Below, piece after piece: positions 2,414 through 48,140 of a stretch of 64,000 nucleotides of DNA. This DNA is from a virus. The notes below the pieces were generated by a model, which saw nothing but the letters and a program-made list of their open reading frames with translations, had not been told where the DNA came from and made no database searches. Numbering within the stretch: position 1 is the stretch's first letter; each line of letters opens with the position of its first letter. The position numbers and the translations under genes were made by a program. The stretch is from the UHGV virus genome UHGV-0036853; one strand, 5' to 3'.

Positions 2414-3436
2414 TTACAGAGAGTCCAGCTCTCTCAGTAGGTCATCCAGACCTTCGTCTTCCGTCGCAGATGCGGCTGCTACAGATGTCGTTGCGTCTGC
2501 TTCAGACTCTTTGGCTGATGCGGCAGCAGAACTTGTTTCTGATTTAAATTCAGATTCCATTGCTCGCAGAACTTCTTCATCAACCAGACTGGTTGGTTCA
2601 GAAGCTGGAGTGTGGGCGGTTGCTACAGCCGTCGCTCCTTCCGTATGACCAGTGATCGAGCCAAATCCAGGCAGTGCAGAGGCCGATGTTTTCGCTGTTG
2701 AGGAAATTGCTGGTGCCGATGCAGTGGCAGTTGGTGCAGCGATGCCAATCAGACGACCCATAGTGCGAACTGTCGCAAGAAGGCGAGTTTCATCGGCCTG
2801 ATTCACATAAGCAATCAGGTCATGTTGGTTGTTCCAGAATTTATCTTCGATATCACCTTTGAAGACTTTACGTTTTGGTGAAACGTCATATTCTGTATCG
2901 CGACCAGAGCCTGTGCGCTTAATTTGAAATGCGTAACCTTCCTCTTTGCTTAATGGATTGCCGATATCGTCAGCGATGTCTTCGGTGATTGCTTTGCAGA
3001 TATCATCGAACACAGTGGAAGGCAGTTCGATTAACTGACATTTCTCTGCATCGGAGAAATCCTCACGAGTTGAAAGAATGCCGTTTACCAGGTAGCGAGG
3101 GGTTGCACGCATTTGACCGATGCGCTCTTCCATTGCTTTGTTACCCTTGTGACGAGCGCGACCTTCCATCACCATTTCGCATAGCTGACAAGCGCGACCG
3201 TGAGTATGTTGCTCACAAATATAAGCATTGGTTGCTTCTTTACCTTCCTCGTTCTGATACTTAATGTAGTGCATACCAAAAGTCTGGAAGAACTTACCAT
3301 TCGGGTCGTCTTTATTAGGGAAGATGCGGATATAGTTGATGCCGTCTTTTAAGCGGGTCAAATCAGTGTTTTTGCCACGTTTGGCGGCAATGTCTTCACG
3401 AGTTTTGTTAAGCAAATCAAGTAATGTCTTAGACAT
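2414..3436 (-). CDS. gp32-like single-stranded DNA-binding protein
   Basis: YIRIFPNKDDPNGKFF N-terminal block, His-x17-Cys-x8-Cys-x2-Cys zinc pattern, acidic C-terminal tail. Confidence 0.55.
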   Translation of the reverse strand: MSKTLLDLLNKTREDIAAKRGKNTDLTRLKDGINYIRIFPNKDDPNGKFFQTFGMHYIKYQNEEGKEATNAYICEQHTHGRACQLCEMVMEGRARHKGNKAMEERIGQMRATPRYLVNGILSTREDFSDAEKCQLIELPSTVFDDICKAITEDIADDIGNPLSKEEGYAFQIKRTGSGRDTEYDVSPKRKVFKGDIEDKFWNNQHDLIAYVNQADETRLLATVRTMGRLIGIAAPTATASAPAISSTAKTSASALPGFGSITGHTEGATAVATAHTPASEPTSLVDEEVLRAMESEFKSETSSAAASAKESEADATTSVAAASATEDEGLDDLLRELDSL

Positions 3437-3553: not shown

Positions 3554-3985
3554 TCAACGGGGAGTAATAAAGCGTTCAGAGCCTAATCGATCTAACTCAA
3601 CGATGGCCATCTTCGACGCCTGAACGATCATGTCTCGGCGATGCGAAAAGGCGGCGACAGCATGTTTGTATATGTCTGCGATGTGCCGTGCTTCATCCAA
3701 CTTCTGCCGTTTAGACAGATACTGTGGGTTTGTTTTAACCTTAGCGTCCAGTACAGACTCGTTGAACTTAATGCCGTTCATACTCAAGTTCTTACGCTCT
3801 GTGTCGTATAGCTTTGCTTCAACAGCTTCAAGGTTAAGTTTTGCCTCTGCGACACTTCTTTCTGCATGAGCGAGTTTTGAGCCATACTCCATTAAAAGGC
3901 GGGGTTGTCTACGCCAGACTTCCTCCAGATTGTCTCGGTCAAACTCGAGATCAGACATTATTTTCTCGTAAATATCGGTGATCAT
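3554..3985 (-). CDS. hypothetical protein
   Basis: ORF only. Confidence 0.4.
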   Translation of the reverse strand: MITDIYEKIMSDLEFDRDNLEEVWRRQPRLLMEYGSKLAHAERSVAEAKLNLEAVEAKLYDTERKNLSMNGIKFNESVLDAKVKTNPQYLSKRQKLDEARHIADIYKHAVAAFSHRRDMIVQASKMAIVELDRLGSERFITPR

Positions 3986-4361
3986 AGTGATATATCCATA
4001 CTTATTTTTACGTATTAATTATATCAAAGAAAGGAGTGTTATTTTGTTTAGGAGAGAGTTTTATTAGGGTGCAATAGGTCGAATGTTACATGGTTCAGTG
4101 AGTCGTAAACTTTTGCTTCATGGAGTGGTTTTCAACCTGACAATTTTTTTGTTAATATCAATGAGCTACTTGCATTTTGCTCCGATGATGCAACGTTAGT
4201 TATTGAGTACCGCAGGACATGTGGGAATTAACGCCTGTGGAGAGAACGGTCAGATAGGATCACTCATGGAAGCAGGAACTCTTGTTCGTTAGTACATAGA
4301 GAATGTCAATACTGAAATTGATTCGTAACTGCTCTTTTTCTATATAGTTGAGGATATTACG

Positions 4362-4694
4362 GTGAAAAAAGTATTAGGTGCTATTTTTGGTGGTTTGCTT
4401 CTTCTGCCAGTTGTAAGCAATGCAGCGGATGCACAAAAAGCCGTCGACAATAAAAAACCTGTTAACGCTTGGACCTGTGAAGATTTCTTGGCTGTGGACG
4501 AATCTTTCCAGCCTACAGTTGTAGGTTTTGCTGATGCTCTGAACAAGAAAGGCAAACCCGAAGATGCTGTTTTAGATATTCAGGGGGTTGCTACTGTAAC
4601 TCCTGCGGTCATTCAGGCTTGCACTCAGGATAAAAAAGCCAGCTTTAAAGATAAAGTTAAAGCCGAATGGGACAAAATTAAGAAAGATCTATAA
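4362..4694 (+). CDS. hdeA: acid-stress periplasmic chaperone HdeA homologue
   Basis: signal peptide MKKVLG..LLLLPVVSNAADA; near full-length match to the E. coli HdeA sequence as I recall it; GTG start. Confidence 0.85.
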   Translation: MKKVLGAIFGGLLLLPVVSNAADAQKAVDNKKPVNAWTCEDFLAVDESFQPTVVGFADALNKKGKPEDAVLDIQGVATVTPAVIQACTQDKKASFKDKVKAEWDKIKKDL

Positions 4695-4780
4695 TTCATA
4701 GAGTACGTTTTATCGTATTCTTATTGAATATTGAGCGAGTAAATCTCCTGTTAGGATGTTTTTCTTGAATGGGGTGTAAA

Positions 4781-5107
4781 ATGACAGTTTCATCTCTACG
4801 TAAGGCCATGATTTTTTTAGGTGCAGTAGCTGCTCTTTCGCTGGTGAATGCACAATCTGTGTTGGCTGCCGGTGGTTCAGCTAATGATATGACTTGTCAG
4901 GAATTTATTGACCTGAATCCAAAAGCGATGACGCCAGTTGCTTGGTGGATGCTCCATGAGAAAACAGTATATAAAGGCGGTGATACTGTAACTCTGACTG
5001 AAACGGATCAGACTCAGATTCCTGAAGTGGTTGAATACTGCAAGAAAAACCCACAAAAAAACTTGTATACCTTCAAAGATAAATTGGCAAATGTCCTGCC
5101 TAATTAA
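4781..5107 (+). CDS. hdeB: acid-stress periplasmic chaperone HdeB homologue
   Basis: SSLRKA.IF.GAVAALSLVNAQS..MTCQEFIDLNPKAMTPVAWWMLHE matches HdeB; start taken at internal ATG 4781. Confidence 0.85.
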   Translation: MTVSSLRKAMIFLGAVAALSLVNAQSVLAAGGSANDMTCQEFIDLNPKAMTPVAWWMLHEKTVYKGGDTVTLTETDQTQIPEVVEYCKKNPQKNLYTFKDKLANVLPN

Positions 5108-5113
5108 CTAATA

Positions 5114-5138
5114 AAACCCGCCAAATGGCGGGTTTTTT
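5114..5138. terminator. bidirectional intrinsic terminator
   Basis: hairpin cccgccaaatggcggg flanked by T-runs on both strands, between hdeB and the polymerase gene. Confidence 0.7.
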
Positions 5139-5139
5139 A

Positions 5140-8100
5140 CTATGTCTTAATAGTTTCTGCTACGTCGGCTAATATCGCTTCTAGTCGTTCTCCCTCTTCA
5201 GGTCTGAAGTAAAGAATGTTGGGGTTAAACCCGTAAAAGACAGTAACGTCAAGGTCTGGAAGATACTCCTTCCTGCCGACTAAATCGGATGGCTTGTTTT
5301 TGTTGTTAAACATTGCCGTTGCCCGGCTGCCACACGTCAGCACATAGGTCGGACGCACCAGATTGATCTCTTCACGCATAAAGTCGGTGAACTGGCCGAT
5401 CTCGTCTTTGGTGTAGTCCTTTTCTTTGTCTTTCACCTTTTTGCAAACGCCTGTGACATAGAGATCGCCCATGCGCAAATCCCCAGCCGTCAACAGCTTG
5501 GCCTTAAAATCGTCGTATCCGTTTTCCATAAAGTAACCGGTTCGAGCATCATTGCCGTTCGCATTGTCCAGAATGATCATGATTTTCGGCTTAATACCAA
5601 TGCTGGGGCGGATTAGTTCATCACCCAAGCCCATTTCAGCCGCCATCCGTGTCATGAGCACGTTAATCTCAGCCGAACGTTTGGGGTTCATCTCAAACGG
5701 ACGTGAGGCTTTAACTGCATCTATGACAAGGTTTCCCATCAATTCAGCCTGGTCGCGGAGGCGCTCTGGATCAGTTGCTGGCAGACTACCTGGCTCGATG
5801 GATGCAAACGCCCCTACTTTTTGCAGCGATTCGCGCACTCGACTATTACAGGCACGTTTCTCGACAGCTTCTTCGAATTGCGCAAGTGATTCGAATTTGC
5901 CGCCAACCTTTTCTCGCGCTCTCATGATGGCCAGGCAGCCATTCTCAGAACACCCTTTCACAGCAGAGAAGGGCGCATACAGCACCTGGCTACCATCTTC
6001 AAGCGTGCGGATCTCGATTCGGTTAGATGACACGTTAACGTCTGGTGGCAATACGCGAATACCATAGGTCAGCGCATCTTTAACCAGCCCCTGGTGTTTA
6101 TCTTCGCCAAGAATAGTGAGAGCAGCAGCGAAAAACTCTGCGGGATAATGAGTTTTCAACCACATAGATTGATAACTGATTAAGGAGTAAGCAACAGAGT
6201 GTGATTTGTTGAACTGGTAGGCACCATTCTTTTCGAATGCGGTCCAGATCTCCTTCGCTTTCATCTCTGATAGCCCTGGATGTGACGCTGTAACGCGTAC
6301 TGCGTTTATAGGTAGTTTTGCGCCGTACTCAAGTGCCTCTTCGACAGTTTTCAGAGTTCCGTCTTCGCATTTAAAATGTTCCGCACGGTGAATGCGCTGT
6401 GTAGTGCCATCTTCCAGCTCAACGTCTATCCAGCCAGCTTGAGCCTGAACGATGAACTTCTCGCCCATGCTCTTCATTTTTTCCATGTCTTTTTTGCCGA
6501 TCGCTTTACGAACGCCGTCAGCTTCAGCCATTGTGAAGCCAGCAAGCAATCGAGTCGCGTTCATCGTCTGTTCCTGATAGAGAATCACGCCATTTGTTTC
6601 TGCGGTAAGTTCATCAAGAACGGGGTGTAATGATTCCGGCGTCATAAAGCCTTTGGCGACAGAAACATAATCATCCAACATGCCTGACTGAATTGGTCCC
6701 GGCCGGAAGAGCGCAGTCGTAGCAACGACCGTTTTAAAGCTCATTGGCTCAATTCCACCACCTAAATCTTTAAGCAGCTTGCGCATTGGGCCTGATTCAA
6801 GCTGGAAAACACCTTGAGTGTACCCAGCAGCAAAACCATCCAGCACCTTGCGATCTTCAAGAGAAATGGCATCAAGATTGATATCTTCACCTCTGTTCTC
6901 TTTTATGTAGCGTTTTGCACTATCGAGCAAATCGAGAGTTGCTAGGCCAAGCACGTCCAGCTTAATTAGGCCCATAGCCTCGCAGTAACGCTTGTCAAAT
7001 GCGATACAACGCGCGTCACCACGTCGTTCAACCGGTGTACGTTCTGTCAGAGGAACACCTGCTACGATCATCCCTGCCGCATGTCTACCAAAGCCACGCA
7101 TAAGGCTTTGTAACTTGCAGGCTGCATTGAATGCATCAGGGTATTTTGTCGCGTATTTGTCGAGACTTGCCAGTTGTTCGCGCAGCTCCTCCAATGGAAG
7201 GCTATCATCCTCGACGTTCTTCAGTTCTTTTGATACCGCCATATCTGCGGACTCCACACCATAAATACGAGCGGTGTCACGTAGTGCAGAGGCCGCGCCC
7301 AGGTAGGTGAAGTTCGGAATGCCTGCAACGTAATCTTCGCCGTAGCGTTCATTCAGATACTCGATCACCTCATGGCGACGTGCCTGGCTGAAGTCCAAGT
7401 CCGCATCTGGCAAGTCGAGACGCTCAGGGTTGATGAAACGCTCAAACAGAAGACCGTGACGGATTGGGTCGACGTTGGTTATGCCTATGCACCACGCCAC
7501 CAGAGAACCGGCAGAGGAACCACGACCAGGCCCAACGGGAATGCCAGTTTCACGACTATGATTCATCAGATCGCGCACCATCAGGAAGTAACCACAGAAT
7601 CCCAGGCGAGTAAGCGTGTCCATTTCGTACTTTAGCCGCTCAACATAAACCCTGTTCTCAGAAGCTGGTGGTGTGTAGCCAAACTCTTTTGTGGTAAGAC
7701 GTTTACGCAGCCCTGCAACAGCCAGTTTCATCAGCGTTGCAGGTTCGTCGTCTGCCATCTTGGGCAGTGCTGGTGGCAATTCATGCCAGCGCCATGTACA
7801 GGCTTCGATAATGGCGTCCTGCGTTGTTGAGGCCATTGCAGCTGTTACCGGCACATCCATGCGAACGGAGAAGGCTTTAAGCGCCTCAAGGAGATGGCGG
7901 CGACCATTGACGGCGTTATCTCGCTGGTGGGGGATACGCAGACGATGCGGCTGGTCGATTTTGATGTTGTTCGTAACCATGTGCGCAATGTCTTTAATGT
8001 CTGCATCGTCGATCGATTCGTAATAAGCGGGATAAAACGCTACTGGCTCTATTTTCAGTGCGCTGGCGACTTTCATCGCCCGGAAGTTAATCTGGTCGTA

Positions 8101-8658
8101 GAATGGGGTAGGGTGCGGATAAACCACACTATAGAAGTTGTCTTTTCCACCCGCTGTAATCAGTGTGCTTATAATTTTTGCAAAATCGTTGCGTTGGAAC
8201 ACGCTACCGATGTCGGAAGTGAGCAGGATGATGTTGCCTTTGGCATATGTAGAAACCAACTGTTCGAGCGAGAGACGCGGTACAAAGTAGAACTGTTCTC
8301 GTGTGTTGGCCACCGTCATTAGTTCGCAGATGTCGCGATATCCTTGCTCATTTTTAATTAGAGCGGTAAACGAGTAGTTACGTCCTCGCTCTAATGATTC
8401 CATACATCCCTTAGACTCTTTAGCAAGTTTAGCCCGGTACTCGTATGTGGGATCATCAACGATATTTAGTTTCACACCACAAATAACCGCCATGTCGTCA
8501 CCAGCGGCACGTTGTAGTGGAATAACACTCGCAATATTCATGCTATCTGCTGAAATTACAGCGGTGTAGCCAGCTTCTCTGGCAATCTTCACCGCGTTTT
8601 CCGCTTTTAACGCCGACTCCCCAAGTGAGAAGTCAGTTCGAACCATCAGTGCCTTCAT
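5140..8658 (-). CDS. DNA polymerase III alpha-type (DnaE-like) replicative polymerase
   Basis: 1172 aa, N-terminal PHP-like region, polymerase-core conserved blocks. Confidence 0.85.
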   Translation of the reverse strand: MKALMVRTDFSLGESALKAENAVKIAREAGYTAVISADSMNIASVIPLQRAAGDDMAVICGVKLNIVDDPTYEYRAKLAKESKGCMESLERGRNYSFTALIKNEQGYRDICELMTVANTREQFYFVPRLSLEQLVSTYAKGNIILLTSDIGSVFQRNDFAKIISTLITAGGKDNFYSVVYPHPTPFYDQINFRAMKVASALKIEPVAFYPAYYESIDDADIKDIAHMVTNNIKIDQPHRLRIPHQRDNAVNGRRHLLEALKAFSVRMDVPVTAAMASTTQDAIIEACTWRWHELPPALPKMADDEPATLMKLAVAGLRKRLTTKEFGYTPPASENRVYVERLKYEMDTLTRLGFCGYFLMVRDLMNHSRETGIPVGPGRGSSAGSLVAWCIGITNVDPIRHGLLFERFINPERLDLPDADLDFSQARRHEVIEYLNERYGEDYVAGIPNFTYLGAASALRDTARIYGVESADMAVSKELKNVEDDSLPLEELREQLASLDKYATKYPDAFNAACKLQSLMRGFGRHAAGMIVAGVPLTERTPVERRGDARCIAFDKRYCEAMGLIKLDVLGLATLDLLDSAKRYIKENRGEDINLDAISLEDRKVLDGFAAGYTQGVFQLESGPMRKLLKDLGGGIEPMSFKTVVATTALFRPGPIQSGMLDDYVSVAKGFMTPESLHPVLDELTAETNGVILYQEQTMNATRLLAGFTMAEADGVRKAIGKKDMEKMKSMGEKFIVQAQAGWIDVELEDGTTQRIHRAEHFKCEDGTLKTVEEALEYGAKLPINAVRVTASHPGLSEMKAKEIWTAFEKNGAYQFNKSHSVAYSLISYQSMWLKTHYPAEFFAAALTILGEDKHQGLVKDALTYGIRVLPPDVNVSSNRIEIRTLEDGSQVLYAPFSAVKGCSENGCLAIMRAREKVGGKFESLAQFEEAVEKRACNSRVRESLQKVGAFASIEPGSLPATDPERLRDQAELMGNLVIDAVKASRPFEMNPKRSAEINVLMTRMAAEMGLGDELIRPSIGIKPKIMIILDNANGNDARTGYFMENGYDDFKAKLLTAGDLRMGDLYVTGVCKKVKDKEKDYTKDEIGQFTDFMREEINLVRPTYVLTCGSRATAMFNNKNKPSDLVGRKEYLPDLDVTVFYGFNPNILYFRPEEGERLEAILADVAETIKT

Positions 8659-24855: not shown

Positions 24856-24910
24856 CCTGCTTCCGTATATATATTTAATAAGTTACTTATTATTTAAATA
24901 CAGAAACAGG
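24856..24910. repeat. large imperfect palindrome A with flanking conserved tail (agctgccagaccgg)
   Basis: arms cctgcttccgtatatat / atacagaaacagg around the TAAGTTACTTA core. Confidence 0.7.
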
Positions 24911-48085: not shown

Positions 48086-48140
48086 CCTGCTTCCGTATAT
48101 ATTTAATAAGTTACTTATTATTTATATATACAGAAGCAGG
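48086..48140. repeat. large near-perfect palindrome B, second copy of element A
   Basis: arms cctgcttccgtatatat / atatatacagaagcagg around the TAAGTTACTTA core; followed by agctcccagaccg. Confidence 0.75.

Follow-up and report, generated by a model that had tools for sequence, protein, structure and literature searches.

Why would a virus-like element of Escherichia carry two chaperones that belong to its host's acid response, and from which promoter would it express them? The DNA considered here is a 64,000-nucleotide stretch of the UHGV virus genome UHGV-0036853 (the window; all coordinates count from its first letter), which we read as an SSU5-like phage-plasmid. Its list of open reading frames (ORFs) and their neighbours confirm that two plus-strand ORFs lie among minus-strand replication and recombination genes, as an original prediction had noticed when it described them as diverged copies of hdeA and hdeB, carried as cargo inside the replication module. 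We consider it probable, with a real margin of doubt, that this hdeAB cassette is a 'moron' with functional HdeA and HdeB, driven from an insertion sequence (IS) remnant and supplying the two chaperones outside the host's acid regulon. The promoter in use, the pattern of expression and the benefit to fitness are what we infer from the sequence.

The first step is the identity of the two proteins. The hdeA gene (4362-4694, plus strand) encodes 110 amino acids from a GTG start, which a GAGGA ribosome-binding site precedes by 8 nt. The hdeB gene (4781-5107, plus strand) lies directly downstream, across an 86-bp spacer, and encodes 108 amino acids from the ATG at 4781. A longer hdeB ORF (4769-5107, 112 amino acids) is open, and the ATG at 4781 is the most likely start: it yields the length of E. 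coli HdeB (108 amino acids) and is the start assigned by the Prokaryotic Genome Annotation Pipeline (PGAP) in an identical record. Both products match Pfam family PF06411 (97.6 bits for HdeA and 85 bits for HdeB; cut-off 22), and each matches its own NCBIfam equivalog, HdeA with 132.6 bits to NF007576 (cut-off 85, residues 1-103) and HdeB with 173.4 bits to NF008599 (cut-off 124). The structure of HdeA in the Protein Data Bank (1bg8) aligns along its whole mature chain to ORF residues 22-110 at 84% identity, and that of HdeB (2myj) aligns to residues 35-112 of the 112-residue ORF at 83% identity. Because these mature chains align just after them, the N-terminal 21 residues of HdeA and 29 residues of HdeB are cleaved signal peptides, as predicted for each protein, leaving mature chains of 89 and 79 residues. 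Residue 1 of 1bg8 corresponds to residue 22 of the window's HdeA (ADAQKA), and the 21 residues before it comprise a basic N-terminus, a hydrophobic core and an SNA motif.

The copies are diverged, as had been claimed: mature HdeA shares 84.3% identity with its K-12 counterpart (14 of 89 residues differ) and mature HdeB shares 83.5% (13 of 79 differ). The HdeA family is reportedly defined, in work by Foit et al. in 2013, by the Cys18-Cys66 disulfide together with the pH-sensor residues Asp20 and Asp51. Alignment to the E. coli proteins had been named in advance as the comparison that might reveal a loss of conserved residues, and it reveals none at the key positions. HdeA keeps Cys18, Cys66, Asp20, Asp51 and Trp16, with its 14 substitutions falling elsewhere, and HdeB keeps both cysteines and its Trp-Trp pair. 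The two genes encode intact, ordinary members of the HdeA and HdeB families, with a predicted chaperone function. The masses calculated for the mature proteins are ~9690 Da (HdeA) and 8919 Da (HdeB), as compared with ~9739 and 9063 Da for those of the host. Three substitutions in HdeA alter its charge (N41K, D43G and Q71K; predicted pI 5.3 vs 4.7) and might, speculatively, move the pH at which it is activated. As reviewed in PMC8144458, the characterized HdeA and HdeB form folded dimers as long as the pH is neutral. At pH 1-3 HdeA turns into an active monomer that is partly disordered, HdeB is active near pH 4, and both bind acid-unfolded periplasmic proteins and let them go on neutralisation. 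Acid and stationary phase both induce the chromosomal hdeAB operon (PMC8144458).

We now turn to how the two genes are set into their surroundings. Alignment with two close relatives, the Escherichia phages PhiR41_1 and CMS-2020a, delimits the whole inserted or replaced segment to 4030-5145 (plus strand). The gap between the UvsY-like gene and dnaE is only 125 bp in both relatives, and the cassette replaces this intergenic region together with the final two codons of dnaE, one sense and one stop. The left boundary (~4030) falls just past a retained extended -10 promoter of the UvsY-like gene (TGATATAAT, 4018-4026, minus strand), an exact motif conserved in both PhiR41_1 and CMS-2020a. At the right boundary (~5145) the backbone's own terminator hairpin has also been replaced, and the relatives carry a different hairpin there. 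All 59 of the E. coli plasmid relatives listed have a short empty site, spanning ~1272 bp where the window has 2301 bp. In the Salmonella phage SSU5 the same slot holds three unrelated small genes. Since close relatives have 125 bp at this position and SSU5 has three other small genes, the position is a cargo slot. The cassette's GC content is 36-43%, compared with 45-55% in the backbone. These relatives, the SSU5 slot and the flanking genes bear out the claim of cargo inside the replication module, and we interpret the cassette as a self-contained accessory unit, or moron, in a variable slot between the UvsY-like gene and dnaE.

The cassette ends in a bidirectional intrinsic terminator, which had also been proposed. 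The hairpin AAAACCCGCC-AAAT-GGCGGGTTTT and its T run (5113-5139, serving both strands) lie between the convergent hdeB and dnaE genes, with the hdeB stop codon at 5105-5107 and the dnaE stop codon at 5140-5142. The hairpin itself (5113-5136), with an A run and a T run on its sides, folds with -16.5 kcal/mol (z = -5.2), and none of 200 shuffled sequences folds equally well. Rfam gives only sub-threshold, terminator-like matches, located at this terminator. The terminator belongs to the cassette and not to the backbone. As a separate observation, the loop at 5123-5126 reads AAAT in the window and ATTT in E. albertii plasmids (L004), with identical stems, which is the pattern expected of a hairpin-loop inversion.

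The upstream region holds the part of the answer that concerns expression. The non-coding stretch in front of hdeA (3986-4361) is 376 bp long, in agreement with the predicted ~375 bp, and it is a composite of four parts: ~45 bp of backbone with the promoter of the UvsY-like gene, ~65 bp (4030-4094), an IS609-like remnant of ~215 bp and a native-type hdeA leader. Searching with this segment returned a 71% match on plasmid pZH177-3, beside a Hok toxin gene. There, an insert of ~272 bp divides hok in two: the Hok N-terminus (MKQPKNALTWC) ends at position 3949 of that locus (L036), and the remainder resumes after ...GGATGTCAA. The insert has the ends of IS609, with 92.5% identity over the left 67 bp and 97.5% over the right 120 bp, and its right part consists of the 3' end of insQ/TnpB and the IS609 right end. 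Because its pZH177-3 homologue carries IS609 ends, the window's segment at 4095-4309 (plus strand) is a diverged and decayed miniature element of the IS200/IS605 family. A direct blast of the remnant to IS609 itself gives no match, and the homology runs by way of the pZH177-3 mini-element.

The remnant begins with a left-end-like part (4094-4142) that has no subterminal hairpin. A central part follows, and then a right-end-like part (4234-4309), which lacks a 42-nt segment and closes in TCAA at 4306-4309. The missing left-end hairpin, CCCCGTCC...GGGCGGGG, is found in both the pZH177-3 element and IS609; TnpA requires intact subterminal hairpins for recognition. The window's copy is most likely an immobile relic. 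The neighbourhood of the pZH177-3 match suggested another candidate, a hok/sok leader upstream of hdeA, which we reject: the pZH177-3 hok is split by the mini-element, and the true sok-type leader lies further upstream. On that plasmid (L036, 3917-4349) hok is interrupted after codon 11 by an element that was inserted after TTTAT and ends in TCAA, and PGAP calls the 3' part of the split gene a complete Hok of 43 amino acids, with an ATG supplied by the mini-element.

From 4310 to 4361 (plus strand) the sequence is a native-type hdeA 5' untranslated region (5' UTR), homologous to chromosomal hdeA from about +1/+2 to the start codon. In blastn comparisons with eleven chromosomal Escherichia and Shigella loci, the match always begins at 4306-4314 and ends at the hdeB stop codon. 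The 110 bp printed upstream of hdeA are near-invariant in the chromosomal copies of six Escherichia species, and the cassette is unrelated to this stretch upstream of TCAAT. The sizes of K-12 hdeA promoter fragments and the +1 G are given in PMC3658693, which also maps GadE, GadX/W, H-NS and MarA sites in the native hdeA control region. Mapping from these fragment sizes places the K-12 +1, the G of TCAGTG, at window position 4309. The IS right end and the native hdeA leader therefore adjoin at the former +1, inside a TCA(A) common to both. A native hdeA-hdeD intergenic region, another candidate for this segment, is rejected because there is no homology upstream of +1. At this junction the IS remnant has replaced the native hdeA promoter at +1, and the mapped regulator sites have been lost with it. 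A scan of the window for GAD boxes finds no match upstream of hdeA, and the number of matches is no higher than chance. One weak GAD-box-like sequence, TTAGGATGTTTTTCTTG, with three mismatches, lies at 4751-4767, in the hdeA-hdeB spacer just upstream of hdeB. Rfam has no match to window positions 4050-4400 even at E = 10, RAGATH-18 included, and so no known RNA family is recognized upstream.

Because the native promoter is gone, transcription most likely begins within the IS remnant. Outward transcription across the right end is usual for IS200/IS605 elements, as the TnpB guide RNA reads through it. The best candidate is an extended -10 promoter directed toward hdeA (TGTTAATAT, 4150-4158, plus strand), with a predicted start at 4164-4166 and a leader of ~197 nt, and the motif is kept as TGCTAAAAT, TGCTAATAT and TGGTAACAT in three homologous modules. 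The leader contains a short upstream ORF (MSILKLIRNCSFSI*, 4303-4347, plus strand) whose ATG is contributed by the right end of the IS and which terminates 14 nt ahead of the hdeA GTG; it has 14 codons in the window and in the related locus L033, and nine codons in locus L034. A candidate block of exceptional conservation in the leader (~75 nt identical to L033) is not upheld: the identical run is 49 nt and the block is 89% identical, like coding sequence. Folding the leader alignment of three sequences yields three compensatory pairs only.

The next question is where the cassette came from. Its nucleotide identity to the chromosomal hdeAB of E. coli, E. albertii, E. ruysiae, E. whittamii and two further Escherichia species is 78-81%. 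For concatenated hdeA and hdeB, the synonymous divergence (dS) to the chromosomal copies is 0.67-0.87, as compared with 0.13-0.64 among the species, and the ratio of nonsynonymous to synonymous divergence (dN/dS) is ~0.10. The cassette thus falls outside all sampled chromosomal Escherichia copies, as an old lineage under purifying selection. Recent capture from the host chromosome is rejected on the same values. A scan of the species representatives of the Genome Taxonomy Database found no donor species, the best HdeB identity being 86%.

Closer relatives lie on plasmids. A protein search recovered two intermediate HdeB variants (90% and 87% identity), both in plasmid-type contexts. One hdeAB locus (L033) lies beside a TacA/GNAT toxin-antitoxin pair and fae/pap-type fimbrial genes; in two others (L034 and L035) the order is faeA, IS110, hdeAB, marR and an autotransporter gene. 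These three loci share the window's sequence from 4119/4126 to 5115/5129 at 84-87% identity, a stretch that takes in ~240 bp ahead of hdeA, and the IS-derived leader and the IS/hdeA junction are common to the window and two other plasmid-borne hdeAB loci. Between the window and L033, dS is 0.29-0.44 and dN/dS is 0.08-0.11. As this divergence arose after the IS fusion, purifying selection went on after mobilisation. We also observed that window positions 4119-4184 (66 bp) have an 86% match to an unannotated stretch on ~10 large IncF plasmids of E. coli (L030, 2501-2564), with faeA/IS3 on one side of it and IS5/IS66 remnants on the other, apparently what remained after a mobile hdeAB locus was lost.

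The 1155-bp cassette stretch itself is present at 99.3% identity in seven E. albertii plasmids of ~62 kb, and identity over the cassette is 99.3-100% among carriers. An index of public assemblies has this exact HdeA in 213 blocks, where no carrying contig exceeds 200 kb and the longest is ~113 kb; all ten of the loci inspected among these carriers have it at the same genomic site. The source names of the members of its HdeA cluster are E. coli, E. marmotae and E. albertii. A tblastn search of 50,697 deposited phage records found no HdeA homologue. One of the seven E. albertii plasmids, p3RM15116 (CP043239.1; L004/L032), combines an SSU5-like replication backbone and the cassette with metG and apbC, has no annotated virion genes, and an HNH endonuclease gene interrupts its dnaE; it gives the impression of a phage-plasmid that has been pared down to a plasmid.

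Together, these observations suggest a mechanism. An IS609-like miniature element took the place of the native hdeAB promoter at the transcription start, and the GadE, GadX/W, H-NS and MarA sites were lost along with it. Transcription would then proceed from the extended -10 promoter at 4150-4158, through the ~197-nt leader, and stop at the cassette's terminator. HdeA and HdeB would be exported to the periplasm by the Sec pathway and remain there, independently of ATP, as inactive folded dimers at neutral pH. At low pH they would partially unfold (HdeA at pH 1-3, HdeB at about pH 4-5), hold acid-denatured periplasmic proteins and release them on neutralisation. If transcription starts inside the IS remnant, the supply of chaperones would be independent of the regulon: expression would be uncoupled from GadE, RpoS and H-NS, for example in growing cells with their chromosomal hdeAB silenced. 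The host, and with it the element, would better survive a sudden acid shock. Because hosts already have chromosomal hdeAB, any benefit would come from altered regulation or dosage.

Several results weigh against this mechanism, some of them against its promoter and others against its benefit. A consensus scan of 3900-5250 finds no sigma-70 promoter with both hexamers, and the extended -10 motif alone is no commoner in the window than expected by chance. The long leader and its short upstream ORF could hold expression down. In L034, Cys18 of HdeA has become Arg and the dN/dS of hdeA is higher (0.22-0.25), and mobile copies can therefore decay. Among complete E. coli genomes, ~200 records match the cassette's flanks at 90-99% and one of them carries the cassette; 5419 of the 5426 genomes match the cassette's own sequence, nearly all at chromosomal places, those listed being annotated as hdeAB.

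The alternative that these results favour most is a redundant hitch-hiker, namely an intact cassette that confers no meaningful phenotype, as every host would already express its chromosomal hdeAB, and that persists only through its small size and its place in a permissive slot of a thriving phage-plasmid clone. We give this perhaps a one-in-several chance, well short of the mechanism above. Chromosomal hdeAB is near-universal in E. coli, the cassette is rare among SSU5-like plasmids in complete genomes, its sister variant L034 is decaying, and the near-identity of its carriers fits a recent clonal spread. However, the low dN/dS between the window and L033, accumulated over considerable synonymous divergence after the fusion, indicates long-term purifying selection on mobile copies. 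The cassette has also been kept in the 62-kb E. albertii derivatives that have no annotated virion genes, and it is found in three host species.

A second alternative retains the native type of regulation: a promoter near the old position, for example GAGAAT at 4299-4304, would depend on GadE and RpoS and be silenced by H-NS, and the cassette would simply add gene dosage whenever the host operon itself is on. GAGAAT aligns without gaps to the K-12 -10 element TATAAC, a sigma-S -10-like CAATACT lies just downstream of it, and the AT-rich region would favour H-NS binding. However, GAGAAT is part of the right end of the IS (compare GGAGGATGTCAA in IS609), and its counterpart in the sister loci is a weaker GAGGAT. 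The upstream region has neither a GAD box nor homology to the printed chromosomal promoter stretch that is near-invariant in six species. We regard this arrangement as unlikely.

Bolder still would be a history in which an IS200/IS605-type element assembled an hdeAB unit that is portable and independent of the regulon, and that travelled between a phage-plasmid and fimbrial virulence plasmids. The IS leader of this unit, perhaps still a TnpB-type guide-RNA scaffold reading into the hdeA leader, would be functionally maintained, either to promote transcription outward and regulate it or to guide host TnpB to targets that resemble the hdeA leader. We hold this to be quite improbable; if it were true, a stress operon on a virus would be driven or guarded by a domesticated guide-RNA module of a transposon.

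The weakest alternative makes the IS remnant the selected part, as a TnpB guide RNA (omega/reRNA) with the hdeA leader as its guide, used by a host TnpB of the IS609 type to act on targets similar to that leader, with hdeAB incidental. Its attraction comes from the related elements: the right part of the pZH177-3 mini-element derives from insQ/TnpB and the IS609 right end, that element gives a sub-threshold RAGATH-18 match (29.5 bits, E = 0.0023), matches to the IS609 mini-element occur in 4982 of 5426 E. coli genomes (mostly to the right end, under insQ/TnpB annotations), and the conservation of the leader is about equal to that of coding sequence. RAGATH-18-derived RNAs guide IS607 TnpB nucleases (PMC11061315). 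Yet we find a guide RNA here very improbable, because the window's copy draws no Rfam match at E = 10, has only ~71% identity to the IS609-type scaffold and lacks its 42-nt segment, no TnpB is present among window ORFs of at least 350 amino acids, covariation support for a leader structure is weak across three sequences, and selection on the hdeAB coding sequences is strong.

We therefore return to the moron with IS-driven, functional chaperones, and to the element that carries it. Around the cassette, the window agrees at every position with a circular plasmid of 110,088 bp, pECOPRAWN_FPGL2 from the prawn gill isolate E. coli S87 (100% identity over compared stretches of 1155 and 2301 bp). 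The flanks match the Escherichia phages CMS-2020a, PhiR41_1 and Cyrano at 96-99%, relatives that were deposited as phages, and the window's dnaE matches that of SSU5 at 82%. The window has virion-type genes (major head protein, portal, large terminase, central tail fibre and tail fibres) and also encodes an integrase, a ligase, a primase and helicases. Plasmid identity, phage-like flanks and virion genes together indicate an SSU5-like phage-plasmid of Escherichia, rather than an integrated prophage. A Rep3-family replication initiator gene is present in cassette-carrying relatives.

The order of genes at the site is syntenic with SSU5 and PhiR41_1. To the left, all on the minus strand, lie a recA-like gene (67-1140), a 5'-3' exonuclease gene (1409-2404), a gp32-like single-stranded DNA-binding protein gene (2414-3436) and, as the immediate flank, the gene for a UvsY-like recombination mediator (3554-3985; annotated as UvsY in phage Cyrano; phrog_2058). 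To the right lies dnaE, encoding DNA polymerase III alpha (5140-8658, minus strand), with the Pfam PHP, DNA_pol3_alpha, finger and HHH_6 domains, and beyond it an AAA ATPase gene and a CobT-like gene. Three features of the backbone deserve a record of their own. In several cassette-bearing relatives (L021-L024, ~4433-6779) the recA-like gene encodes 779 amino acids and contains an intein with a LAGLIDADG endonuclease; the window's copy encodes 357 amino acids and is intein-free. In the E. albertii plasmids with a split dnaE, GenBank labels the C-terminal 389-residue piece a uracil-DNA glycosylase, which hints at a glycosylase-like domain fused to the C-terminus of the phage-plasmid DnaE (5140-8658). 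A near-palindromic 17-mer, TTAATAAGTTACTTATT, came up in the GAD-box scan at 24875-24891 and again at 48103-48119, 23 kb apart; this pair could be a repeated operator or binding site.

How does the cassette compare with systems already described? It resembles chromosomal hdeAB, which lies in the acid fitness island (hdeD / hdeA-hdeB-yhiD), in its gene order, 5' UTR, ribosome-binding site, signal peptides and key residues. In contrast to the chromosomal locus, it has no hdeD or yhiD neighbour, an IS remnant in place of the promoter and a different terminator. The regulatory unit of the acid fitness island is not matched, as the native promoter is absent and the neighbours are the UvsY-like gene and dnaE. 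The loci L033, L034 and L035 differ from the window in that their replicon context is not a phage-plasmid and they have no strong terminator hairpin. Phage morons are likewise small host-fitness genes between phage genes, absent from close relatives, of atypical GC content and with their own terminator. The cassette differs from them in its plasmid-prophage carrier, its antiparallel orientation to its neighbours, the presence of both hdeA and hdeB and its IS-derived leader.

Compared with IS609 (tnpA and insQ/TnpB), the window's remnant is alike in its left-end-like and right-end-like stretches and in the TCAA at the right boundary; it differs from the IS609 mini-element by its ~71% identity, its lost left hairpin and the 42-nt deletion in its right part. 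SSU5, PhiR41_1, CMS-2020a and Cyrano have the same backbone genes in the same order (at 96-99% for the E. coli relatives), with the slot empty or filled with other small genes. A separate hdeA-like gene, 59% identical to the window's HdeA, is found on a lambdoid prophage contig from IMG/VR (L039, 4923-5303), between the antiterminator Q gene (with an alpha/beta hydrolase gene next to it) and holin/lysozyme genes, a classic moron position; a second IMG/VR contig (L038) has an equally similar hdeA-like gene.

Our literature search found no paper joining hdeA with 'phage-plasmid' or 'SSU5', and a broader search returned nothing relevant; a study of plasmid proteins by MALDI mass spectrometry mentions HdeA and HdeB only as host proteins (PMC8629258). 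The protein families and the moron arrangement were already known, and automatic annotation in RefSeq names the genes correctly. What is new is a phage-plasmid sublineage as the carrier, together with an IS-rewired mobile hdeAB lineage with its promoter swapped at +1.

For the biology of these bacteria, the consequence lies in when the chaperones would be made. HdeA and HdeB are main determinants of periplasmic protein survival during passage through the stomach, and E. coli normally keeps them under a stationary-phase and acid regulon. A phage-plasmid copy freed of that control could give acid tolerance to growing cells, and it could carry the trait across three species, E. coli, E. marmotae and E. 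albertii, food-borne and animal-associated strains among them. The locus also provides a clean natural case in which an IS200/IS605-family remnant has taken over the place of a promoter at the transcription start, and an example of cargo turnover at a defined slot of SSU5-like phage-plasmids.

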